This document shows positions 3,268-48,116 of a DNA stretch of 64,000 bases, piece by piece (position 1 is the first letter of the stretch; every line of letters starts with the position of its first letter). Below the pieces are notes generated by a model. That model was not told the origin of the DNA. It did not search any database and saw only the letters and a program-made list of their open reading frames with translations. Source of the stretch: Hormiphora californensis (lineage: Eukaryota; Animalia; Ctenophora); assembly GCA_020137815.1 (NCBI GenBank), contig CM035360.1, positions 3,968,001 through 4,032,000 of the forward strand, in the 5' to 3' direction. Both the position numbers and the translations under genes were made by a program.

Positions 3268-3344
3268 CTGTCAGAGCATTGGCCTGACCCATTCTCGTTT
3301 CTCTCAAACGCGCGAGAACTGTGGTCAGAGCATTGGCCTGACAG
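3268..3344 (+). mobile_element. 77-bp micro-MITE, family A (CTGTCAG...CTGACAG)
   Basis: 8-bp TSD GGTCGAGC (3260-3267 / 3345-3352). Two internal direct copies of TCAGAGCATTGGCCTGA. Confidence 0.85.
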
Positions 3345-4921: not shown

Positions 4922-10791
<5,870 letters not shown>

Positions 10792-12335: not shown

Positions 12336-15300
12336 TCAAACTGAGATGCTATTCTTTACCTCCGCCGGTACCATCATGAAGGAGCCTCCTCCAGACTGGA
12401 GCTTATCAATCCATCCCTCCATCCTCAGCCTCACAATCCCCACCAACTCCCTCACCTGCCGGCCTTTAACCCTTACAAAGTATATCACTGGGAATGCGGT
12501 GGAGTTGAAGGTACTGAGAATGTTAGTACTGACCAGGTACACGTAGCTGAAATGTCTCATGAACACCACGCTCTGGTCCTGGTCCAGGTAACTCTCCAGA
12601 GGGCTAAAGATTTTTAGATCCCTCGTGACCAGCTCGTGTATCCAGATGATCATGTAGGGCCCGTAGGAGAGGATGAACGCGATCGTGATGTATGTGATGG
12701 TCACACTCGCTCGAAGGGAGGAGTCCGTATCCAGGAGATGAGATTGTGTTCGTTGTCTGCTGAGTGTTTTAGCTCGCTCCCTCGCCTCTGCCTCCAGTGC
12801 GGAACGTTGTGTGCTGCTTGCGGAGGTTTGTCGTGAGGTCGTTGTTGTCATGGTAACCGCACTCAGATTCGATATTTGTCGCTCAACCTTGGCATGTTGG
12901 GCCAGTGATCCTTGATCTGCAGTACCAGATCCCTCGATGTTGTGAAGAAGGAAAACAGTGCGTTCCTCCTCGACTGGTTCCACCATTTCCCTCGATTGAC
13001 CCTCAGTTTCCTGACCACAGCAATGCAGCATAGAACTGCAGTGAGGAAGGGAATGGTGATTGATAGGTTAGCTGTCAGTCGGATAGGAAGGGCAGGAGCA
13101 AAGTTTGCGTGGGTGATATTCATGTAGAATCCTCCGAACTGTTCTGAGTACTGAAAAAAGAGGAATTGTAAAATCTCAGCAGTTTTCAAGAGTAAGAAAA
13201 TTCAACAACAAAAATCCTTTGGGTTAAACACGTTTGCTCTCGTTTCATAAAACCGTGCGTAGGGCGGACGTTTGCTCCCCTGTGTACATTAGGGTGTGCT
13301 AAGTGAAAATTTTGTCGATTTGGCCAATTTGGTAGATATGAAACTATGGACAATTGTCTACTAAATCCTGAAAACGGAATTAGGGTAGTGTATGTCAATT
13401 ACGTGGGCCAGGCGATTGAAAAAGTTTACTTTTTTACCGAAAAAAGGAAAATATGTGTGTTTTACACCAGTGTTTGGCATGTTCTTTATATCAACTTTTT
13501 ATAGACAGGGTCGTGTTCAGCGGTTTGATACCGATCAGAATGGATGTGTATCATGAAAGTTAGCCAAAGTTCATTTTTGACCTGAAAATGTTCATTTTGT
13601 ACCAAAAATGTTCATTTTTGACTAAAAATGTTCGGTTTGGTCATTTTCCTCTATATTTGAGAGCTTTTTCATGAACGGGATCGTGTTCAGCAGGTCAAAA
13701 TTAGTCGGTTACAACCGGAATTTGCATTCCGACAAATAAAATCTTAAAAAGTTAAAATTCGTCTCCACTAATACTGCAAAGTAGGAAAATGTGCAAGAAA
13801 AAAAGATGAAACAAAAAATTTTTCATTATAAAATGGAGTTCTAAAGGTGCAGACTGGAAATAATGGTTGTACTGAGTCTCATGAGGCGATTCATATGTGT
13901 GGTTTTTTCGAAATAACGCCCCAAAAAACATTGTTTGATATGAATATGCCCATATATGGGCATACATCGGCCCACGTAATTGGGCCAGGGTAGGACTAAA
14001 AATTTTTTACCAAATGTTTTAAAATGATCGTAGGAACTCATTCTAGGGGTAAACTATGTGAAAATTGGATTTGATTTATGAGTTGGGAAAAATAGCACAC
14101 CCTAGTATTACACTGTACATACCACGAAGTTGTTGCCAGTGTAGAAGGGGATGCCCGCTATAGCGATGGGTATCACCCAACAGGCACCGCTAATGAAAAG
14201 GGTCTTTTGGATGGTCATGAGTCGAGAGCTACTGAACACGAAGTATACCCCAATCACTCTGCGGGGAAATTGTTATAGATAGGTTGGTTTAGTTCTATTG
14301 ACATTTGGTCTAACGTTTGGCTTGTTCAAACTCTCTCAGGGATAGAGCAATTCGAAGCTTCGAACTCGAAAAACGATATAAGTACAAGAATAAACCCCTT
14401 AAAAGTTTCAAATGAAAGGCTGCATGATAAGTTACCTGATCAGGGAAAGTGATGAGAAGTGGTAGATGGAGAGAAGGGGATGAGAGTTGATAGGAATCCG
14501 AAAAAGTTGCAGAAAACACCAATACCTTGATCAATATCAAAACTTCTTCCTGATATCTGCACAATGATACGTCCAGTTACGATCATATTCCCTAATCCCT
14601 TCCCGAAACCATTCTCTATACATCCCTAACTGAAATCTAACTACATAATTTAACTCTAATCACATCTCAATTTTAGCAAACAGGCATGTACACATGAGAT
14701 ATCTTGTTGAGTAAGGGGTGGTTAGTGGTGTTACTCAACACTTGAGATGTCCCTATGAGATGTCAGACAACTTACCAGACCAAAGCTGACCACGGGAGCT
14801 TGAACGGCACAGCCCACCAGATCCACAATGCATACTTGGAGCATAATCAAGGAGGTTGGGTTTACCTTGCCCCTTCTCAGCTTCACCAGGATGACTGCTA
14901 ACATCAGTGTGTTCGATACTGTCCTGCGGTAAGATATAATAATGTTAGATCGGGGTGCAAAATATTCGATATGTTGTTAAAATGAATAAAGTTAGATCAG
15001 GGTAGTAAAAATTAGGTGTCAGTAATAACGTGAAGAACTGTACTGTCTGGCAGCGCCAGGGCGCCAGATCCCGCTTTTATTATCAGATCATAATCGGGTT
15101 TGACACGTGTTTTATTTCAGCTACTGTACCCGATGAAGCAGAGAAGAAAATAGAAGTATCCCAAGACGGAATCCAGTTGTCTGGTAGACGCTAATGATGT
15201 TTCGTTCATGTTCTATAATACCGGGCACTCCATGAGGTACGTGTGATTCATACACAGACAGTAGGAGGCAAAAAGTAATAAATATCTCACGCACACGAAT

Positions 15301-15643
15301 TTGGAGTGACAACTTCCAAAATTCGACTTTACATACTTGGGGGTGTAAAGTCGGATTTTTGGGACTTTATTTCCCCGGATGCAAAAGAGGGGAAAGTAAT
15401 AATATATCGATTAATATCACAACACATTAGTAATAATATTCCTTACTACTCAGACAAGTCGACTGCATTAGCTATTAGGCTACCGCTAGGTATTAACATT
15501 TTATGCTATAACGCTCAATAAATGGCATGACAAATGGGATATTTAGTTGCCATGTGTGTGTCGGTACTGCGTACCTAATATATGAGACCGACCAACACCT
15601 ATGTAATTATGTATTGACGTCGATACTTCCCTCTCATATTGAG
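12336..15643 (-). pseudogene. rhodopsin-class (class A) GPCR with frameshifts (pseudogene or consensus errors)
   Basis: Exons 15575-15643 (tentative), 14776-14923 (TM1 SN, TM2 LQVCIVDL), 14436-14556 (FCNFFGFL, 1 nt short), 14123-14258 (R-VIGV, TM4 W..P) and 12336-13150 (TM5, frame change in ICL3, TM6 FILSYGPY, TM7 NSTAFPVIY). Start codon not located. Confidence 0.8.
13290..14104. mobile_element. hAT-like non-autonomous element in a GPCR intron
   Basis: 12-bp TIRs TAGGGTGTGCTA...TAGCACACCCTA. Flanking direct repeat is degenerate. Confidence 0.65.
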
Positions 15644-15944
15644 CTGTAGCTAGGATTCTTCAAAGTTTAAGATGGAGAGCGGTAAAAAAGGAGTATGGTG
15701 TGTGTGTATATATGTCTTGCTCAAGTGAATTTTATGTCAGGTGAAAATTGCGATAATTTACAGCTTATGAGACAAAATGACACATTGCTCAGTTTATGAT
15801 ACAATGAAATAGTGTTTATTTAGGACTGTAGACGACTCGGAGATTTATTTCAGGAAAGATAATACGGGACGGTTTCGACGTTTAACGTCATCATCAGCTC
15901 AAATTAATTTGTTTAAAGTAGTGTTGAAAAGTTTGAAACTTTTC

Positions 15945-15987
15945 AGTTTCAAACTTTTCAACACTACTTTAAACAAATTAATTTGAG
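15945..15987 (+). other. retro-copied spliced-leader exon (ctenophore SL-like); inverted copy at 15898-15940
   Basis: AGTTTCAAACTTTTCAACACTACTTTAAACAAATTAATTTGAG matches, from memory, the Pleurobrachia-type ctenophore SL. It ends in TTTGAG like many SL exons. It is not followed by GT or an Sm site, so it is not an SL RNA gene. Confidence 0.8.
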
Positions 15988-16030
15988 CTGATGATGACGT
16001 TAAACGTCGAAACCGTCCCGTATTATCTTT
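15988..16030 (+). ncRNA. type I hammerhead ribozyme core lacking the native 5' strand of stem I
   Basis: CTGATGA (15988-15994), stem II GACG-TTAAA-CGTC, GAAA (16009-16012), short stem III C..G, putative GUA cleavage triplet at 16020-16022. Confidence 0.65.
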
Positions 16031-16183
16031 CCTGAAATAAATCTCCGAGTCGTCTACAGTCCTAAATAAACACTATTTCATTGTATCAAAACTATGCGAC
16101 TCAAAAACAGCCGATTGGTCAACTTATTGATGCTCAGTTTATGACATGAGACATATAGCTCAGCTCGCTATATAAAGTATTGG

Positions 16184-16250
16184 CTGTCATGCCAATGCTC
16201 TGACCACAGTTCTCGCACGCTCCGATAGGGTCAGGCCAATGCTCTGACAG
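16184..16250 (-). mobile_element. 67-bp micro-MITE, family A
   Basis: Perfect 8-bp TSD AGTATTGG (16176-16183 / 16251-16258). Confidence 0.85.
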
Positions 16251-17516
16251 AGTATTGGTTAAAGCGTTTATACTGGTGACGGAGTGCGAAGGAAATGATC
16301 CCCAAGTACAATACAGGTTTAAGTGCGAGTTCGATGACTGCAGGTGGTGCCAACAAATTTGGATTTAAAGAGGTTGTTATAATCATCAGTGGTAGTGTCA
16401 AAGTGGTAGTGTCAAAGTGGTAGTGTCAAGGGATCGTGCTGGATGACACATTATCGCTGCAAAAGGCCTCTACAGCTGCTCTACTACTAATTTGGCTAAA
16501 AGCCAATATGTTCTTGTATCAACACAATTATGAGTTAGTTCAATTGTGGTCACTGGGCATGAATATTGGATGGAAATATTTACTTTGTTGTTCAAACTTA
16601 GGGAGAGATTGGTAATGAAACTACCGGCTCTCAGCGCGAGATGACCAGTGTAAATTTAGTAAGGAGAGAGAGGATCGAGCAAGGCAAGGAAATATTAGGA
16701 ATAAAGAATTCTTGGGAATTCTTTCTAGGGAAATAATCACCCTTTTTGTTCTCCCCACGCCCCAGACGTAGTTGGTTAAAACAAAATGGCCAAATATGAA
16801 CTAAATATTGAATGGCAAAGTTACCCTGTCAGAGCATTGTCCTCAGTGAAATTTCAATACACACTTGACAGATTCAACGAAGGGATTATTGAATGCACCA
16901 ATGAGCATTGGGCAATCTATTCCCCATCTCATTTATTTAATGGTGGGCAGAAAATTAAGATAAAAAGTTGATTTAGCCTTATCGGACTAATACGTTGGTA
17001 GAGCCCTGTCAAGATTTGCTAGGCCCGCCCACTGTGTGAGAGCTGTCACGCTGTGTAACCTATAATTCATATATCTTGGCCAATGCTCTGACCAGTGACC
17101 ACAGTACTCGTGCGCTCCTTATTTGAAGAAATAAGAATGGGGACAGGCCTTAATTTTTAACAAGAATTATTGCATTATGTATTCATAATGCTGTGTTTCC
17201 CTGCCCTACCGTTTCACATGTCAGTGACATTGTCACTGCCAACAGGATCAAGGCTTGGTCATAATGTAATGTGAGATGCATACGATCTAGCTGTCAGTAT
17301 ACTTCTCACATAGCTTAGAGTTAGCTAACTCCCAATCACATGACACTTGCTAACCAGCTTTTGACATTCCAACTTAACTACTTATCTAACATCTCACACT
17401 CGACTCCCAAGATGAAAATGTGTATGTAACGCGCGGCAGAGCATTTCATGTTTTGTTGAGTGGCGCGCGCACACACGTCCATCAAACTGTGTCAATGAGG
17501 TGTTTGATGAAGGAGT

Positions 17517-20023: not shown

Positions 20024-20656
20024 TATAAATAATTACCTATTAGCTGTGTAAAGCCTGCGGAACGCAGCTGAACCTAAATTGTTGGCTCAGTTTCGTCTCT
20101 TATCACCTGTGTTACACGCCTATGATGATGATTGTTCCTTGTCTAATTATATCGTAGAAGATAATGTACTCCCGTGGGGCGTGGGGCTTTAATAGCTCTC
20201 ACCGCGGCATGCGTTTGACTCATTAACTTGATATACACGTATAATATGTGTACCTACTCTCCCTACAATTTGTAGGGCGAGTAGGTACACATATTATAGT
20301 TAGTTAGTAGTACAAATGTAATACAATCTGCATAATTCTGTCTAAACCCTCGTTTAATATGTTGAGTTGTACAGCTGGTGTACATTACACCCGTCACCCG
20401 GGCCTTTGTTAGCGTTATGTTGGGATCTGTGACACAGCTCTAACTGTTACACTTGGCTCTATTCAGAATATAGTCTATTCTTTTTGTCTATTCTTTTTGT
20501 CTATTCTTTTGTGATTGCGTTTTTAAAGTTTAAACAGTCATTTGTACACATAACATTCCATTGACCATTTCGAACATTACTCTAACCAAACTTCCCCTAT
20601 TTTTATCTGTTGAGCATTACTCTAACCAAACTCCCCCTATTTTAGCTGTTGACACC

Positions 20657-21802
20657 ATGTCTGACGATGAACATGAGCACCTCCGGTGCCCAATCTGTCT
20701 GGAGATCTGCGAGGATGCGGTTGCTACCACGTGCTGTCATCAGCTCTTCTGTGTCACGTGCTCCGAAAACCTGTCCAACTGCCCGACCTGCCGGAAGTCA
20801 CCCTTTCAAGCAACCCCGAACATAGCGATACGCCGGCTGATTGGTGCCATGAAAACTTCCTGTGAGTGGTGTGGCGTGGAGAAGATATGCCGAGCTGATA
20901 TGAAAAATCATCTTGAGAAGTATTGCCCGGCAAATAAAGTCAAATGTAAAGACTGCGGGCTGACTGAAATAGCAAAGTCAGAACTACCGGAGCACAAGAG
21001 GGACTCGTGTCTGGGGAGGCTCGTTGATTGTACCCAGTGCCAAGACAAGGTCAAAGTCTTAGAACTCCTCGAGCACAAGGCCAAATCGTGCCCTCGGAGG
21101 ACGGTGACGTGCGAGCTGTGCGAGATGTCGGTAGTCTGCGAGGTCTTACTGGATCACAAGTACAAAAAGTGTTCCAAGCGGCAGGTTTCGTGTCCCGTAG
21201 CGGGTTGTGATATGGAACTAGGGATACCGTTCCTCAGTCTCCACTTGGAGGACATACACGGCCCAGTTGAGGAAATATTCCAAAAACTCAGCGCCAGTAC
21301 ACCTCCCCCACCTGATCCCCCTGCACGTCAAGCAGCTCCTGAGTTCATAGACCCCATCGAATCTAAGCAGAACCGAAATGGGAATCACGCCCGACTTGGT
21401 AGCACTGGAAAGTTCTACTGCGGATCTCGGCTGGGCTTCTCCTGTGGCTGCTGCAACGGCTTCTGTGGGCCTACTAATGGTTGTAACTGTGTGGCGTGTT
21501 ATGAGCTGGACCTGAAAACCCGGCGGTTACCCCCGGGATACTACGTCAACAAGTTGGGCGCGGTGTGTCGGAAAGGGACTATTGTCCAGTCTAAAGTGTA
21601 CTGTGGACGTAAGGTGATGCAGGTGACCCGGAGGTGTGATGGTTGGTGTGGCGATGACAATGGACCGGAGTGTGAGGAGTGTGCCCTCTTGTTCCTTCAA
21701 ATTCAGACTTGTTATCGGGAGTTTTGCTCCAGTGAAGACTGGGAGGAGTGGGCTGGAATGCGGGATAGAGGCCGTAATGTCAATAATTGTAGACATCAGT
21801 AG
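20657..21802 (+). CDS. intronless RING-HC + TRAF-type zinc-finger protein with a duplicated Cys-rich C-terminal domain (probable E3 ligase), 381 aa
   Basis: ATG at 20657 (accATG). RING CPIC..C.H.FC..C..CPTC, four to five CxxC..H..C TRAF-like fingers, a Pro-rich linker, then two YCG-xn-C[ND]GxCGxxNGxxCxxC repeats. No MATH domain. Branch point, pyrimidine tract and AG acceptor lie just upstream. Confidence 0.9.
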   Translation: MSDDEHEHLRCPICLEICEDAVATTCCHQLFCVTCSENLSNCPTCRKSPFQATPNIAIRRLIGAMKTSCEWCGVEKICRADMKNHLEKYCPANKVKCKDCGLTEIAKSELPEHKRDSCLGRLVDCTQCQDKVKVLELLEHKAKSCPRRTVTCELCEMSVVCEVLLDHKYKKCSKRQVSCPVAGCDMELGIPFLSLHLEDIHGPVEEIFQKLSASTPPPPDPPARQAAPEFIDPIESKQNRNGNHARLGSTGKFYCGSRLGFSCGCCNGFCGPTNGCNCVACYELDLKTRRLPPGYYVNKLGAVCRKGTIVQSKVYCGRKVMQVTRRCDGWCGDDNGPECEECALLFLQIQTCYREFCSSEDWEEWAGMRDRGRNVNNCRHQ

Positions 21803-22809
21803 AACGTAGACAGGGGAGAAACTGACGTGAAGTGTGAATTATTGTAGTGATCTCTGAGGTTTGGGGACTGAAACAGGTCATTTTTTGAGATGATTATGGG
21901 AGCTTTATAGTATTTTTTAAAAGTGTGAGCGAGGGAGAACATGGGACTAGCTCTTAATAAATTTTATAAATAGTAGCAAGTTTTGATGATTTGCTTTTAT
22001 TTTGTGTTTCTAAACGCTTTTTTCAAGAACTGAGCACTATAATACTTAGTATAATAACACCAAACGCACTTCCACAAGGCACTTCGACAAACTAAAATAG
22101 CTCTTTGAAAGCTCATCAAATCAACAAAACTTCCCTGTACCAAGCAGCAAGTACAGCTATATCGCTGTTGAAATGATTTAAGAACACGGAGCATCCCAGA
22201 CCGCACGTTGCTTGAGAGTGGAACAGTACGAAGGAGCTGGCGATCAGAGGGCATAGAGGGGGACGGGGTATAACAGAGAGAGAGAGAGAGGAGAGAGGGT
22301 GGTTGGAGCAGAGGCTAGAGAGAGGTTGTATAGAAGGGATCAGAGGGCATAGAGGGATGGGGTATAACAGAGATTATGGTGGCGGGGGTCGGTTGGAGCA
22401 TCGAGAGAGAGAAGAGATTATATGTAGAACGCTGCGGCTGGCTGAATATCAACTGGATCGAACAATGGAAAGCTATATACTTCAACTCCGAGAGTAGCAA
22501 TCTGCTCACGTATTATTCTGATCTGAACTTAGTTTAACACATGTCTTTTCAGAAGCTGTCTCGTGCCAATATAAGAAGTATCATGAACAGGACAAGGTTA
22601 AACAATCCATTTCTTGGTAGGCTTCCAGGGATAGTTGCAACAATGCTAAACGGAAGTTAGAATTAGAAGCTAGTCAACAGCTCTGTCAGAGCATTGACCT
22701 GACAGCTATTAGCTAATGTTGGATATAAAATGAGTAAACAAAGATAGAGTAGGGTCTACCGCTGCAAATTATAATGATAGGGGTTTAAGTGAAAACAGAA
22801 ATCGCAAAT

Positions 22810-23000
22810 GAAAACAAGTGGTTTTATCAGACAATTGTTTCGATCCATCTGGATCTCATCAGTATTCAGTAATTCCACTGATGAGATCCATCTGGATTCT
22901 GGATCGAAACAATTGTCTGGTAAAACCGCTTGTTTTCATTTGTTTTCTGCTCTCGGTCCTGGATCGATTGAGCTCTCTCGTGTGAATCGACTACTCACAT
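22810..23000 (+). mobile_element. second Penelope-like palindromic insertion with hammerhead ribozymes
   Basis: Inverted arms at about 22805-22863 / 22877-22942, then an approximately 55-bp tail. Flanking 20-bp near-identical direct repeats TGAAAACAGAAATYGYAAAT (22790-22809 / 23001-23020). Confidence 0.8.
22875..22920 (+). ncRNA. minimal type I hammerhead ribozyme
   Basis: Stem I CCA/TGG, CTGATGA, stem II GATCCA/TGGATC, GAAA, palindromic stem III C-AATT-G, and GUC cleavage site at 22915-22917. Inverted copy on the minus strand at about 22828-22863. Confidence 0.85.
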
Positions 23001-23912
23001 TGAAAACAGAAATTGTAAATTTGTTTTTAAAAAAAACAAGCAAAATGATACCTGTTATGCAAAGTAAAACACAGTTCCAAATACGAAAGCCGTGGAACAA
23101 CTAGCCTTGCACCCTTCGATAATACGGCATGAGAGTCCGCATTGCTGCGTATCTGATACGCAGCGATGCAGATACGGTATCTAATTTGCCAAGATATAGA
23201 AACGCCTAGATTAAGCAAAAATTAACGGAAAACATTTGTCACATGCCTTGCATCTAGAAGCAATTAGCGCAGCAGCTGGGCTTATGTGTGACATGCGCTG
23301 TATGTAGGGGAAACTCTACCTGTAATTTTCATCAATAAGGGATAGACTGTTAGTCTCACGTAAGCAACAGTTGCGAAACACCTATGCGATACGTCAAATA
23401 CTTGTCTCACAAAAGACTACCCTCTCTGAATCAGACACGTGAAGCAGAAGTTTTTCAACCGCTGTTCTGAGAGAATAGGCCCAATGCTCTTCGGCCATGC
23501 AGTAAATTTATACCGGTTAGTGGTAGAATTAGAACGAGTAGATGACATGGGAAATAAGAAAAACCTTAAGTGCTTCATGCAAAAAATTCCCAGAACTTCC
23601 TCTTGAATTTACAGCAGAACATAAACTGGCACGCATTCTCACAAGGGGGAGAGAGACAGAGAGAGGGGAGATAGACAGAGAGAGGATGGACTATGGAGAG
23701 AGGGGATGGACTATATGGACATCGTTTCATTACTTTAGACTCGAGCTGCTCTAAAATAGTAACACCCGTCCTCCGTTCTTTCAAGCACACTACCAGCCGA
23801 TAGACGTGTCTATAGAGTGAACTATTACAGGGGACGTGTTACTTTTTAGACGGTCCTCTAAGGAACCTGTGAATTTTTTTGTATAATAATTCCTTCGAGA
23901 GAACATTATATA

Positions 23913-26454: not shown

Positions 26455-27908
26455 ATGGTAATTAATTATAATAGACCTGTCAGGCCAATGCTCTAACCAT
26501 GACAGTTCTCGCACGCTATTTGAAAAAAAATTATAATAGGGCCAGGCCAATGCTCTTACAGTAATTGACTGACTTGTGCCCTCACGCCGTGGCCAATGTA
26601 GTAGCAATGGGAGAAGCTGTATCTCAAACGGGGCCGGCGCTAGAGCTCACAGAAAAATTTCCAGATTTTTAGTTGTCACCCGTTAGCGCTCTATCGGTCG
26701 TTCACCAAAATATATCATTTCTTCAGCACCTAACGGGCCTGGTTGAACCCACAGAGAACACACTACTAACTCAGCAAAGCAACAATGGCACTGTGGAAAG
26801 TGGATATGCGTCCATCAGCACTGTCAGCTCTGGACCCTTAACTGCAGTTACCAGCGCACCACGAGATAGTCCAAGGTCTGCTGATATCATTACAGGTGAC
26901 CCTTTTTTTTTCTTTTCTGTGCGGTATGTTCCCCTTTTTTTTCCATCTCTCAGAGTTACTTACACATAGCTATAACAGGTTATGTTCTAACCCTTCCTTT
27001 ACATAAAAGAGGGTCGAGCTAGGCAAGTTTGTGACATTCAAACCTCCCTATAGGTAATAACAATCAACCAGGAGAGGAGGATTTGCCCAGTATGGTGCGT
27101 GTCGTGTACCAGATGGACACAGTTCAAGGACCACAGCCCGGATACCAGGCGTCTGGGGGTGGTGGTGATCCCTACCAACTTGATGCTTTAGACAAAGCAG
27201 CAGGTACATGTGGGGGAAAGCAGTCGTGCCTGAACCTCAGGTTCAAGCCACGGCTATTTCCCCCTGTGGGAAAGGAACGTAAGTGCCAGTACCTCAGAAT
27301 CTCTAATCAGTTCCTCCTAATTTACTAATCCAGCTTTCTACTTCTTCTTGTACTTTAGCTTATTAAACGAAGTGTATTCGTCAATTTAACCATCTTCTAA
27401 ATCCCACCTAGATGAGAAGTTCCACAATATATCTGGCCGGTCAGACTATCATCATTCAGTTGAGGTACCAGCAACACCGGCAGCAACCACCCGACTCTTT
27501 GGCTGCTTTGGGTCACCAACAACAGGGGATGATGGTGCCAACTGTATCATACTTGTTTACAGGTACATGTATCTCTTGTTATGTGTTCCAGCCTTGTTCA
27601 AGGTTCGATCCTCTGTCCGCGACAGAATTTAGGGAACCGATGAGAGATCAGAGAGGATCGATCGATCAATGCAATGCATCTTATCTTACTGATCTTAAAT
27701 AGAACCATGCGTGTGTTCAGGATTCGTTAATGCAAGGTGTAAGTGTTATTGAAAACTTGGGTATATTGATTATTGATTAAATCCCTTCCCCTCAGCCGCC
27801 TGCTGGAGCTTGTCATCCCGAACAACAAAGATGGCTATGTGGACGTGGACGCAGTACCCGACACAACAAATAAACAGTACGTGAAGAGAAGGAGAGAGAG
27901 AGGGGAGA

Positions 27909-28799: not shown

Positions 28800-28876
28800 C
28801 TGTTAGAGCATTGGCCTGACCCTATTATCATTTCTCTCAGCACGCGAGAACTGTGGTCAGAGCATTGGCCTGACAG
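28800..28876 (+). mobile_element. 77-bp micro-MITE, family A, nested in a small TTGTTGAGTAAGGG hairpin repeat
   Basis: Perfect TSD CTCATCCC (28792-28799 / 28877-28884). The host hairpin family also occurs at 14704-14740 and 53681-53716. Confidence 0.85.
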
Positions 28877-30725
28877 CTCATCCCTTACTCAAAGATACGC
28901 CATTTAATATACGTACTAAAATACCCCATCGTATCTATATTGTAGAGGTATAGAGCATACATGCTACTGCAGTTATGGTAACCACTGCCTGGTATCCATT
29001 ATGGTATTGGTATAGCTGATAGATCTACTAAGATCTTGCTACGATACCGCACACACTATCTGACATATCTGATCCCTGATATACTATCACTATCAGAACT
29101 TATTGGGTAAATCAGGACCCTTCGTGGGAGGCGGTAAATGGGTGCCCCAACTTTAAAGCGTGCCCCTTTATATAATCAATGATGAGATCTTGTTCAGGAT
29201 TAAATATATGTGTGAGAGAGATAGTGAGATTAGCAGCCAGAGAAGATATTAAAAATCTTGTTCCTTTATATAGTGTACGATTTAAATTGTCAATAATTTA
29301 AGCTTTCGATAAATCTGCTCCATACTTGTCAGGTCAATGCTCTGACATGACAGCTCCATACTGGTTTCATTACCCTTTACACATTATCAATAAACCCAGA
29401 TATCCTAGAAAACTCTGATTCCGAGAGATTTCTGGAAGATTACTCAAGCATTACAGCTGATTAATCCGAGTTGTACGAGATTTATTTGGCATGCGTTGCA
29501 GGCCCCAGTGTGCACGACGCGGCCACTAAGCCACCTAATAATATACAGGGGACTGCAGCGTAGGCCAAGGGATTGGATATTCTTTGATCACTCATAGCTG
29601 CTTGTGGCCATGGCTTCAGATGAAGTATAATAGTTTTTGAAAGTCGGCGGGCTGTTTTACTTTTGATAAAAACATTGCACGATGGATTCCCATTTAAAAG
29701 TTGACTTCATCAATAATCGTTTGCACCGTTTTATAGTGTGTTCGTGATAGCTCGTTTGTGCGTACCGACTGCATAGACTGCAGGAGAGATAGCTCCTTTG
29801 AAGGAACAGCTGCACCGAACAGACCATGAGATATTACTGAAGTGATCAACCTGTTTTAACCTTGTGTAACAAGTTTAAACACAGCTCTGTACGACTCGCT
29901 CGCATGCTTGCATGCAAAAAATGAATGAGGCCTAAATTATAAAATATTCAACATGATGATACAGGTTTCAAACAGTGCCAATGACACTCCCTCCGTCACT
30001 AATCAACCGCGCTTGATCTCTCTATCCTCTCTTCCCTTCATCACTGTACCACCTCAGAACCCATAAAATTACAACTTAACACACAATATGCTGCTGGTGC
30101 AGAGAGAGATCAATCATCGACCTATTGACGTACATCATATGTGCTATCAGTCGACCTTATCATTATATATGTCTGCAGAGTGTGCAGTAGCTGCTGTGTG
30201 CCACGTTCTGTCTTCCCTCTCGTTCTTGTTCATTATTTATTTGGTTGGTTGATTGGTGAGAGCAGTTGGTGATGTTGTTGGCCTTGTTGAGGGCTAACGG
30301 TTGACCATGTAAAGCTTCCCATTTATGGGATTTGCCACCGCTGAAGAACTTGATTATCACGGGATGTCGAGTTGCCGTTCATTATTTGTATAATATCGTC
30401 CTCAGGAAACATTCCTGTGTTGACTGTAATTGGCTTATCTCGTTATCATTGAACAATTCATTGTGGGACCCGGGACCAGGAGGTCACGTTAGGACTGATC
30501 AGAGTATAAATTCTGGTGACTATTCGTGCCGTATTAGCCGAATTTTGTTCGGCTATATCTTTCTGCACATTCGATCCTCTCCACTACGATAGGATCAGCT
30601 ATCATGTGACGAGGTCAAATCTTTCTGGACAAGCCGCGGCAGCCGCTTTCATGGTTACAAATCATAGTTCATATATATGAATGATCATAGTTCATATATG
30701 ACAGGAGTTCAACCTTTGTTGGGAT

Positions 30726-38242: not shown

Positions 38243-39802
38243 CAAGGTGGCCCATAAATTATGATAGCGGGGGACGAGCTGTACCTCCCAAACGGTGATA
38301 GTTGTGTAAAAACAAACTACGGGAACATGCTGGAACAATTCCTGGACGGCTTTTTGCAAATTATGAAATTTTTATTCAAAAGTTCATTTTTCATTCATGA
38401 ACTTTCTTCACGTTCATTAATGAACTAAGGACTCTAATTTACCGAGAGTGCGGCATTTTGTTTGGGTTGAATTTATCTTTCCAATGAGCACCATAAAAAT
38501 CAAATTGAAGCACCAGGTCACATGGCAGTTGAGAAAATGCACATGCATGATTTTGGCTGTTCCTGCGACTGTCGAGCGGCTGTATCCATGATACCATTTT
38601 GTTCAATCTTTTTGAAACTTTGGGTGAACATTAGCTTTGATAAGATCTTTGTTCACAAGAAAAATCAAGGTCAAAACTCAAAGTTCATTTTTAAGTGTTG
38701 GCAGTTCATTCCACTCATTCAAGAACCAACATCCCCAAAGTGATGAAAAGTGATGGTTTTTGTTTGGCCCATACCCTGCATCGATAGAGATGTGTAAAAA
38801 TACGTTTCCGGGCTAGTTAGTGGGTGTCCATGTGATCATGATGATATCTGACACCTTTTCTGAGCCATAATTAAGGTATTTTCTCAAATTCAAGCATGTG
38901 ATTTGAGTTTTGCGATTGGTATCGTGCCACAATGTTGAAAGATCTCATAGCACCTCAAAAATGATGATTAGTTCAATGACAGGAGTTGATTTATGATAGA
39001 AAAGATTTAAACAGACGTCAAAATGAACTAAAAGATAATTTAAGATCATAAATCAACTCATTTCGTTGAACTAATCATCATGTTTGAGGTGCTATGAGAT
39101 CTCTTAACTTTGCTGCACGATACCAATCGCAGAAAACTCAAATCACATGCTTGAATTTGAGAAAATCCCTTAATTATGGCTCAGAAAAGGTGTCAGATAT
39201 CATCATGATCACATGGACACCCACTAACTAGCCCGGAAACATATTTTCACACCTCTCTATCATTGCAGGGTATGGGCCAAACAATAACTATCACTTTTCA
39301 TCACTTTAGGGATGTTGGTTCCTGAATGAGTGGAATGAACTGCCAACACTTAAAAATGAACTTTGAGTTTTGACCTTGATTTTTCTTGTGAACAAAGATC
39401 TTATCAAAGCTAATGTTCACCCAAAGTTTCAAAAAGATTGAACAAAATGGTATCATGGATACAGCCGCTCGACAGTCGCAGGAACAGCCAAAATCATGCA
39501 TGTGCATTTTCTCAACTGCCATGTGACCTGGTGCTTCAATTTGATTTTTATGGTGCTCATTGGAAAGATAAATTCAACCCAAACAAAATGCCGCACTCTC
39601 GGTAAATTAGAGTCCTTAGTTCATTAATGAACGTGAAGAAAGTTCATGAATGAAAAATGAACTTTTGAATAAAATTTTCATAATTTGCAAAAAGCCGTCC
39701 AGGAATTGTTCCAGCATGTTCCCGTAGTTTGTTTTTACACAACTATCACCGTTTGGGAGACACAGCTCGTCCCCCGCTATCATAATTTATGGGCCACCTA
39801 CA
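38243..39802. mobile_element. Tc1/mariner-like foldback element nested in the MULE
   Basis: Near-perfect inverted arms of about 750 bp starting AGGTGGCCCATAAATTATG, with TA flanks. Explains the mirrored ORFs 38522..38743 and 39301..39522. Confidence 0.85.
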
Positions 39803-44495: not shown

Positions 44496-47400
44496 CCCTA
44501 GTCAGAATATAATACGTATTATTTTCAACAATACGTATTAAATACGCGCGCAAATATGTATTTAATACGTATTAAATACGTATTATAAGCCGAAAATACA
44601 GAAAAGCCGCGCATTTAGCAAGTGCTACCATCGCGAGCCGCACAACTTCCGACCCAATTTTAGGTCAAAAGCGCGTTACAGATACTACCTACAGCCTCAC
44701 CCTGCCACATGTCCCAATACAGCTCTGCCGCGAAGTGCTAGTACTGTGTTCCTTCGTCTTCTAAAACAGATCCCTGTCCCAATACAGCTCTGCCTGCCAC
44801 GAATTGCTACTGTGTTCCCCCGCCTTCTAAAACAGGTCCATGTCCCAGTACAGCTCTGCCACGAATTGCTACTGTGTTCCCCCGCCTTCTAAAACAGGCC
44901 CCTGTCCCAGTACAGCTCTGCCACGAATTGCTACTGTCTTCCCCCGCCTTCTAAAACAGGTCCCTGTCCCAGTACAGCTCTGCCACGAATTGCTACTGTG
45001 TTCCCCCACCTTCTAAAACAGGTCCCTGTCCCAATACAGCTCTGCCACGAATTGCTACTGTCTTCCCCGCCTTCTAAAACAGGTCCCTGTTTTAGAAGAC
45101 GGAGGAAGACAGTAGCAATTCGTGGCAGAGCTGTATTGGGACAGGGACCTGTTTTAGAAGACGGAGGAACACAGTAGCAATTCGTGGCAGAGCTGTAGTG
45201 GGACAGGGATCTGTTTTAGAAGGCGGGGAAGACAGTAGCACTTCGTGGCAGAGCTGTAGTGGGACAGGGACCTGTTTTAGAAGACGGAGGAAGACAGTAG
45301 CAATTCGTGGCAGAGCTGTATTGGAACAGGGACCTGTTTTAGATGGCGGGGGAAGACAGTAGCAATTCGTGGCAGAGCTGTATTGGGACAGGGAGCTGTT
45401 TTAGAAGGCGGGGGAAGACAGTAGCAATTCGTGGCAGAGCTGTAGTGGGACAGGGACCTGTTTTAAAGGTCAAAAGCGCGTTACAGATACTACCTACAGC
45501 CTCACCCTGCCACATGTCCCAATACAGCTCTGCCGCGAAGTGCTAGTACTGTGTTCCTTCGTCTTCTAAAACAGATCCCTGTCCCAATACAGCTCTGCCT
45601 GCCACGAATTGCTACTGTGTTCCCCCGCCTTCTAAAACAGGTCCCTGTCCCAGTACAGCTCTGCCACGAATTGCTACTGTGTTCCCCCGCCTTCTAAAAC
45701 AGGCCCCTGTCCCAGTACAGCTCTGCCACGAATTGCTACTGTCTTCCCCCGCCTTCTAAAACAGGTCCCTGTCCCAGTACAGCTCTGCCACGAATTGCTA
45801 CTGTGTTCCCCCACCTTCTAAAACAGGTCCCTGTCCCAATACAGCTCTGCCACGAATTGCTACTGTCTTCCCCCGCCTTCTAAAACAGGTCCCTGTCCCA
45901 ATACAGCTCTGCCACGAATTGCTACTGTGTTCCTCCGTCTTCTAAAACAGGTCCCTGTCCCAGTACAGCTCTGCCACGAATTGCTACTGTCTTCCCCGCC
46001 TTCTAAAACAGGTCCCTGTCCCAATACAGCTCTGCCACGAATTGCTACTGTCTTCCCCGCCTTCTAAAACAGGTCCCTGTTTTAGAAGACGGAGGAAGAC
46101 AGTAGCAATTCGTGGCAGAGCTGTATTGGGACAGGGACCTGTTTTAGAAGACGGAGGAACACAGTAGCAATTCGTGGCAGAGCTGAATTGGGACAGGGAC
46201 CTGTTTTAGAAGGAGGGGAAGACAGTAGCAATTCGTGGCAGTGCTGTAGTGGGACAGGGACCTATTTTAGAAGGCGGGGTAAGACAGTAGCAATTCGTGG
46301 CAGAGCTGTAGTGGGACAGGGATCTGTTTTAGAAGGCGGGGAAGACAGTAGCAATTCGTGGCAGAGCTGTAGTGGGACAGGGACCTGTTTTAGAAGACGG
46401 AGGAAGACAGTAGCAATTCGTGGCAGAGCTGTATTGGAACAGGGACCTGTTTTAGATGGCGGGGGAAGACAGTAGCAATTCGTGGCAGAGCTGTATTGGG
46501 ACAGGGAGCTGTTTTAGAAGGCGGGGGAAGACAGTAGCAATTCGTGGCAGAGCTGTAGTGGGACAGGGACCTGTTTTAGAAGGCGGGGGAAGACAGTAGC
46601 AATTCGTGGCAGAGCTGTATTGGGACAGGGACCTGTTTTAGAAGGCGGAGGAACACAGTAGCAATTCGCGGCAGAGTTGTACTGGGACAGGGACCTGTTT
46701 TAGAAGACGGAGGAAGACAGTAGCAATTCGTGGCAGAGCTGTATTGGGACAGGGACCTGTTTTAGAAGGCGGAGGAACACAGTAGCAATTCGCGGCAGAG
46801 CTGTACTGGGACAGGGACCTGTTTTAGAAGACGGAGGAAGACAGTAGCAATTCGTGGCAGAGCTGTATTGGGACAGGGACCTGTTTTAGAAGACGGAGGA
46901 ACACAGTAGCAATTCGTGGCAGAGCTGAATTGGGACAGGGACCTGTTTTAGAAGGAGGGGAAGACAGTAGCAATTCGTGGCAGAGCTGTACTGGGACAGG
47001 GACCTGTTTTAGAAGACGGAGGAACACAGTAGCAATTCGTGGCAGAGCTGTATTGGGACAGGGACCTGTTTTAGAAGGCGGAGGAACACAGTAGCAATTC
47101 GCGGCAGAGCTGTACTGGGACAGGGACCTGTTTTAGAAGACGGAGGAAGACAGTAGCAATTCGTGGCAGAGCTGTATTGGGACAGGGACCTGTTTTAGAA
47201 GACGGAGGAACACAGTAGCAATTCGTGGCAGTGCTGTAGTGGGACAGGGACCTATTTTAGAAGGCGGGGTAAGACAGTAGCAATTCGTGGCAGAGCTGTA
47301 GTGGGACAGGGATCTGTTTTAGAAGGCGGGGAAGACAGTAGCAATTCGTGGCAGAGCTGTAGTGGGACAGGGACCTGTTTTAGAAGACGGAGGAAGACAG

Positions 47401-48069
47401 TAGCAATTCGTGGCAGAGCTGTATTGGAACAGGGACCTGTTTTAGATGGCGGGGGAAGACAGTAGCAATTCGTGGCAGAGCTGTATTGGGACAGGGAGCT
47501 GTTTTAGAAGGCGGGGGAAGACAGTAGCAATTCGTGGCAGAGCTGTAGTGGGACAGGGACCTGTTTTAGAAGGCGGGGGAAGACAGTAGCAATTCGTGGC
47601 AGAGCTGTATTGGGACAGGGACCTGTTTTAGAAGGCGGAGGAACACAGTAGCAATTCGTGGCAGAGCTGTACTGGGACAGGGACCTGTTTTAGAAGACGG
47701 AGGAAGACAGTAGCAATTCGTGGCAGAGCTGTATTGGGACAGGGACCTGTTTTAGAAGACGGAGGAACACAGTAGCAATTCGTGGCAGAGCTGAATTGGG
47801 ACAGGGACCTGTTTTAGAAGGAGGGGAAGACAGTAGCAATTCGTGGCAGAGCTGTACTGGGACAGGGACCTGTTTTAGAAGACGGAGGAACACAGTAGCA
47901 ATTCGTGGCAGAGCTGTAGTGGGACAGGGACCTGTTTTAGAAGACGGAGGAAGACAGTAGCAATTCGTGGCAGAGCTGTAGTGGAACAGGGACCTGTTTT
48001 AGAAGACGGAGGAACACAGTAGCAATTCGTGGCAGAGCTGAATTGGGACAGGGACCTGTTTTAGATTCT

Positions 48070-48116
<47 letters not shown>

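Follow-up and report, generated by a model that had tools for sequence, protein, structure and literature searches.

The window, the 64-kb stretch of Hormiphora DNA that was analysed, carries a head-to-head pair of spliced-leader (SL) and hammerhead sequences that was likely produced by a Penelope-type reverse transcriptase from a likely trans-spliced sense RNA, a reading to which we give a probability of about 0.7.

Architecture of the insert and identity of its leader

An exact 14-nt direct repeat (14 of 14 nucleotides identical) bounds a 331-nt insert at 15800-16130 (Table 1). The two arms, 15797-15940 and 15945-16088, comprise 144 nt each and are perfectly complementary with 0 mismatches; the last 3 nt of the left arm come from the left target-site duplication (TSD), leaving 141 nt inside the insert. 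The runner-up exact inverted repeat in the window, at a gap of no more than 10 nt, measures 17 nt. These coordinates confirm the geometry proposed in the sequence-only reading, in which a 331-bp insertion between 14-bp TSDs was composed of a perfect 144-bp inverted repeat and a 42-bp tail. The same reading had placed a 43-mer at the hairpin tip, where it is indeed located, although as one copy per arm, the two 43-mers meeting head to head rather than making a loop. The 3' end of the insert displays no A-run and abuts an exact 14-nt TSD. Direct tandem monomers are absent, the element being a single head-to-head unit with no tandem copy within the 64-kb window. The further proposal that the event was recent is plausible but weakly shown, because 0 mismatches in 144 positions still permit a divergence of up to ~2% and palindromic arms can be homogenised.

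Table 1. Features of the SL-bearing insert, in window positions.
Feature	Position	Strand	Basis
Left target-site duplication, 14 nt	15786..15799	+	repeat comparison
Inverted arm, 144 nt: SL, hammerhead core and body, without tail	15797..15940	-	inverted-repeat search
SL copy in inverted arm, 43 nt	15898..15940	-	identity to published leader
4-nt spacer TTTC between arms	15941..15944	.	sequence
SL copy in direct arm, 43 nt, then CT, no GT donor	15945..15987	+	identity to published leader
Core of a minimal type I hammerhead; predicted cleavage 3' of C16017; weak Helix I	15988..16017	+	descriptor
Remaining pLTR-like body, AATAAA at 16036 and 16065	16018..16088	+	sequence
42-nt tail, direct arm only; ATG at 16094 open to boundary; family 3' end near 16131	16089..16130	+	
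Right target-site duplication, 14 nt	16131..16144	+	repeat comparison

The sequence at 15945-15987 corresponds to the last 43 of the 44 nucleotides of the published Hormiphora leader, with 43 of 43 positions identical. This leader is printed in PMC8527503 (here and below, papers are cited from the excerpts available), which reports that 56% of Iso-Seq reads carry it and that the genome contains 718 copies, and which suspects leader copies of creating false shared first exons. In the excerpts of that paper the words "retro" and "penelope" each occur 0 times, and no link is drawn between the 718 copies and retroelements. Metagenome contigs scanned with the last 22 nt of the SL returned 121 loci of ~140 estimated. 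The leader is preceded by no more than 30 nt in 113 of these 121 SL contigs, and it is followed by diverse, unrelated sequences resembling mRNA 5' ends. The 43-mer is thus the pleurobrachiid SL, as the sequence-only reading had recognised, and this identity points to a pleurobrachiid ctenophore as the host. Two loci within a single contig (L088 and L089), ~780 nt apart, are tandem SL RNA genes, in which the exact 43-mer is preceded by C and followed by a GTAAG donor; the window SL continues with CT and is therefore not an SL gene. The SL begins with an 11-nt near-palindrome. It gave 0 matches in viral contigs, a collection poor in animal DNA in which a blank shows no absence.

Each SL copy of the window has an ORF downstream on its own strand, such that leader reads there could mis-map as a first exon. 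The ORF downstream of one copy (20534-21802, +) encodes RING and TRAF zinc fingers, while that downstream of the other (12336-13067, -) resembles half of a 7-TM receptor by eye, without Pfam support. A short, very high-copy repeat lies immediately right of the insert (16184-16250), with relatives at 3268-3344, 26477-26561 and 28800-28877 and in contig L063. Elsewhere, the window contains two long inverted-repeat elements that are foldback- or MITE-like (38245-39799 and 6024-7171, with arms of 667 nt at 98% and 281 nt at 95%, respectively), a 62-nt tandem satellite with an internal inversion (44660-48070) and sulfotransferase exon fragments at 5537-5815 and 10122-10409 (-).

The multi-copy family and its Penelope affinities

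Contigs of four public runs were compared with positions 15300-16700, runs X1, X5 and X22 representing one organism (A) and run X9 a related organism (B). Relative to the flank, depth summed across the body came to 132-368x in X1, 71-192x in X5 and 427-570x in X9 (with the X9 flank taken as 50), values that indicate many copies but are not a copy number. The insert belongs to a multi-copy family. A common 3' end is marked by 22 X1 contigs that depart from the window sequence at 16131 and continue into heterogeneous sequence (agreement 0.47), and G is found at 16089 in most X1 and X5 family contigs. The listed family pieces diverge by up to ~12% (15 differences in 123 nt, X9 record 28). Among the 32 pieces listed of 8277, SL-SL tips with gaps of 5-10 and ~single-copy depth occur in X1 records 4, 5 and 6 and X5 record 18, and X9 records 27 and 28 display SL plus body within unique contigs of 1.3-1.5 kb. 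Nine of the 14 joints listed of 28 cross the palindrome tip at other points, with SL on at least one side in seven and on neither side in two, and family tips elsewhere are truncated at many points. No clean empty site appeared among the 14 joints listed of 28; alleles in X1 and X5 skip a block larger than the insert, from 15774 to 16344 and to 16277, respectively, and X1 also carries a window-identical piece (16227-16377) at half depth. One X5 contig joins the SL (15985) to the position of the tail ATG (16094) with unknown letters between, and perhaps represents a related family.

Positions 15988-16017 form a hammerhead-like motif, a predicted ribozyme, comprising CUGAUGA, one unpaired U, a 5-bp stem II opening with G-C, GAAA, a 2-bp stem III and GUC. 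The SL-to-CTGATGA..GAAA junction described in the sequence-only reading accordingly holds the core, stem II, stem III and NUH. A descriptor of minimal hammerheads found six matches on the two window strands, whereas 60 Markov controls averaged 0.28 and none exceeded 3, and four of the six fall within two TSD-bounded palindromes. Rfam returned no hammerhead or SL family match to the insert, even at E<=10, and its sub-threshold miRNA hairpin matches were rejected as generic hairpins. Helix I, expected at 4-5 bp, is weak, with a single G-C pair standing beside the core. Completion of Helix I by the SL was rejected, since its pairing with the 3' strand was no better than that of shuffles (fractions 0.44 and 0.22; 2000 each). 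In a hand count in the same register, which compares different species, the acceptor-bearing form paired 4 of 5 positions (two of them wobbles) and the SL form 2 of 5; the idea that the SL switches the ribozyme off was set aside as too weak, resting on this cross-species hand count. The motif resembles the minimal type I hammerheads of metazoan Penelope-like elements (PLEs) in its core, the unpaired nucleotide before stem II, the G10.1-C11.1 pair and a tiny Helix III needing a dimer, and differs from them in that Helix I is poorly formed, with the SL in place of its 5' strand (PMC4209133).

The element acts like a Penelope stub, and its motifs and layout make membership of the PLEs likely. Head-to-head copy, one-sided tail, TSD and hammerhead are alike in EN+ Penelope-like insertions (Pen2a_Av, PMC3846280; PMC8557442), which share with the ctenophore insert a possible ORF start in the tail. 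The insert differs in containing neither an ORF nor a second direct pLTR. Its 42-nt one-sided tail is slightly above the published 30-40 bp. The ATG at 16094 remains open for 12 codons to the insert boundary; two codons further on, the heterogeneous consensus that follows 16131 (agreement 0.47) would end this frame. Since the pLTR plus tail of Pen2a_Av contain the ORF start (PMC3846280), the arrangement may hint at a coding stub, a resemblance that is suggestive only. A difference lies in splicing, as PLEs are noted for retaining introns, while the ctenophore arms begin with the host SL and thus represent a spliced form.

It is quite probable that Penelope machinery wrote the insert. This machinery is read from the shape of the insert, because neither an RT or GIY-YIG ORF nor a parent was found: none of the 115 window ORFs of at least 75 aa encodes RT or GIY-YIG, and exact-pattern scans for the SL-hammerhead junction, the hammerhead and the tail gave 0 matches in metagenome, viral and prokaryote collections, which hold little animal DNA and whose empty scans do not show absence. 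Of the Penelope assignment made from sequence alone, the inverted copy, tail, TSD and hammerhead core stand, whereas a parent with RT and GIY-YIG was found neither among the window ORFs nor in the pattern scans.

A second Penelope-like stub, of another family, occupies 22790-23013. It is flanked by a 13-nt TSD (22790-22802 and 23001-23013) and comprises head-to-head hammerheads at 22862 (minus) and 22878 (plus) with a palindromic Helix III, diverged arms and a tail of ~58 nt. This palindrome carries no SL, and the palindrome plan therefore does not need one.

The family could also have been trans-spliced in the same manner and yet consist of self-standing short non-coding elements, SINE- or retrozyme-like, with an RNA of SL plus ~143 nt mobilised in trans. 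Non-LTR retrozymes are built of direct tandem monomers with circular RNA, in contrast with the head-to-head pair, tail and SL of the ctenophore insert. The likeness of the insert to metazoan non-LTR retrozymes is that these are short, non-coding, hammerhead-bearing retroelements (PMC7229834). Many copies with a common 3' end at 16131, the AATAAA motifs at 16036 and 16065, and a coding parent found neither among the window ORFs nor in pattern scans of public collections are all compatible with such an element, and non-autonomous pLTR-forming elements are known (PMC8557442). However, the tail has an ATG-started open frame as in autonomous elements (again suggestive only), the other copies break off at many different tip positions, as stubs would, and the missing parent reflects a search confined to the window and public collections. 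A self-standing element is thus unlikely, and the sequence-only claim of a tiny non-coding retroelement gives way to a stub of a longer Penelope transcript, which fits at least as well and is the more likely of the two.

The probable trans-splice junction and leaders on other retroelements

An SL is added only to sense RNA, by the spliceosome, and marks the true 5' end of that RNA. Beyond 15899, four X9 contigs from organism B (among the 24 rows listed of 530) diverge from the inverted arm, and their consensus has an agreement of 0.8. Read on the sense strand, the organism B junction consists of ten T residues, GT, an AG held in common with the SL and then CTGATGA. This T10-GTAG at the SL junction is a textbook 3' splice acceptor, observed in organism B only; the acceptor is not among the rows listed for organism A. 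The Penelope element of D. virilis has an intron in its 5' UTR (PMC2377424) that ends on the 5' side of Helix I (PMC4209133), such that its splice acceptor occupies the same place as in the ctenophore element. Because the D. virilis intron also ends there, the acceptor that the ctenophore element offers to trans-splicing is likely the usual Penelope one.

The hammerhead followed the SL in 0 of the 121 SL contigs, 41 of which have a flank of only 300 nt. One X22 record (16) opens with the SL and the start of the hammerhead and then diverges, in a run that is only guessed to be RNA. Identity of the SL, the organism B acceptor and the other SL-bearing tips together give good support to the proposal of the sequence-only reading that the insert is a fossil of a trans-spliced element RNA that was reverse-transcribed, and a trans-spliced origin is very probable.

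SL capture is not special to the hammerhead palindrome, as LINE copies carry the SL too. In four loci (L028, L039, L043 and L065), mutually 65-71% alike, 40-43 nt of SL stand directly before a two-ORF element, and ORF2 matched the endonuclease families PF03372 and PF14529 above cut-off in both elements tested (L039 and L043). Unrelated sequence precedes the SL over 102 nt in L028 and 38 nt in L039, which are therefore read as genomic LINE insertions. Three further loci (L072, L082 and L086) display the SL inside unrelated DNA, before unclassified sequence; the transcript-like L015 resembles L072 by eye. DinoSL-relic retrogenes are known in dinoflagellates (PMC12014239), where a DNA-encoded SL is a tag of retroposition as in the ctenophore insert, and in Hydra ~30% of TE Iso-Seq reads carry the SL (PMC12220107), host trans-splicing being used there as is proposed for the ctenophore element. 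The former are retrocopies of host genes and the latter is an RNA-level observation, in contrast with the ctenophore insert, where the SL is fixed at the DNA level in each of the two arms of a palindrome with hammerheads.

Alternatively, the SL could have been captured once, long ago, and now be a fixed part of a copied master element. SL-hammerhead junctions are shared by the two organisms and extend to diverged copies (X1 record 4, X9 records 27 and 28), which would fit such a history, but the SL of the insert is identical to the present-day SL gene while family pieces differ by up to ~12%, and acceptor-bearing copies persist, leaving this history a slim chance. Other taxa have retroelements with SL genes as their targets, and also template-switch chimeras, and the SL might by analogy have been joined at the DNA or cDNA level without splicing, through a template switch onto SL RNA or mRNA or an SL-gene insertion. 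This route is barely credible, as the junction coincides to the nucleotide with the end of the SL exon and with the acceptor AG of the parent, and the insert contains no SL intron or SL-gene flank (L088). Finally, a fold-back read or assembly artefact, a concern raised in the sequence-only reading and prompted by the perfect palindrome, by the lack of any listed contig spanning the whole stretch and by other haplotypes without the insert, has a negligible chance and is rejected, because the inversion ends at a 14-nt duplication with the tail on one side, the second window element shares the plan with its 13-nt TSD, and head-to-head SL tips occur at ~single-copy depth in contigs of two other samples.

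Proposed mechanism and its implications

Trans-splicing followed by reverse transcription by Penelope machinery, which we prefer to the alternatives above, would proceed as follows. The unspliced parent has the T10-GTAG acceptor right before CTGATGA, as seen in organism B, and the spliceosome would replace the part upstream of the acceptor by the SL. The resulting RNA probably corresponds to the 5' part of a Penelope transcript, or else to a terminal fragment released from one, rather than to an independent SINE-like element. An endonuclease would nick the two target strands 14 nt apart, and each 3' end would prime on the sense RNA, one at ~16130 and the other 42 nt further in, at 16088, an offset that would leave the tail on one arm only. 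Both cDNAs would run to the 5' end of the RNA, and both arms do reach nucleotide 2 of the 44-nt SL. The cDNA ends may then have been joined through the self-complementary start of the SL with a 4-nt fill-in.

Two details of the insert bear on these steps. The 3' end of the left TSD agrees with positions 16086-16093 of the element RNA in 8 of 9 nucleotides, with one bulge, and is a candidate priming site of the inverted arm at the top-strand nick. Positions 15936-15945 repeat the SL-internal 15951-15960, and the TTTC spacer reads as a short templated fill-in that preceded the joining of two complete ends. The arms are better explained by two cDNA ends than by a single fold-back, because the latter could not copy its own primer end, yet both arms keep the 5' end of the SL; the two-cDNA route is accordingly favoured, if modestly. 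The poly-T acceptor has been lost, and the insert copy is therefore probably a dead end.

A possible precedent, SL-tipped Penelope palindromes in bdelloid rotifers, was named in the sequence-only reading. In the excerpts available of the rotifer Penelope paper (PMC3846280) the word "leader" occurs 0 times, and nothing on this point was found in those of PMC7986045, PMC6431247 and PMC4664967. A literature search, with most subscription papers outside its coverage, found no paper on SL-tipped Penelope insertions or on SL-tipped ctenophore retroelements. Already known are Penelope palindromes, SL relics in dinoflagellate retrogenes and the SL on Hydra TE reads. The Penelope transposition cycle is described as still undefined (PMC8557442), and PMC3846280 leaves open whether head-to-head palindromes derive from an antisense template through self-priming or, alternatively, from a sense transcript that is unspliced. 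The ctenophore insert points instead to spliced sense RNA as the template of Penelope palindromes, at least for the stubs of this element. Because spliceosomes attach the SL to sense RNA only, and at the point where that RNA truly starts, its presence on each of the two arms naturally labels the template strand, the splicing state and the completeness of each cDNA.

More broadly, we advance as a tentative view, held with less than even confidence, that in pleurobrachiids SL trans-splicing routinely gives Penelope-like and LINE retroelements their 5' end, that the several hundred SL copies in the genome are therefore mostly retroelement tips rather than SL genes, and that Penelope palindromes arise when spliced sense RNA is reverse-transcribed twice, starting at opposite nicks and perhaps with two RNAs kept together by the dimer-dependent hammerhead, rather than by antisense self-priming. 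Many of the leader copies counted in the Hormiphora assembly (718) may be accounted for by SL-tipped retroelements, a testable proposal, and a genome with many SL-tipped copies makes the question of the Penelope template countable.
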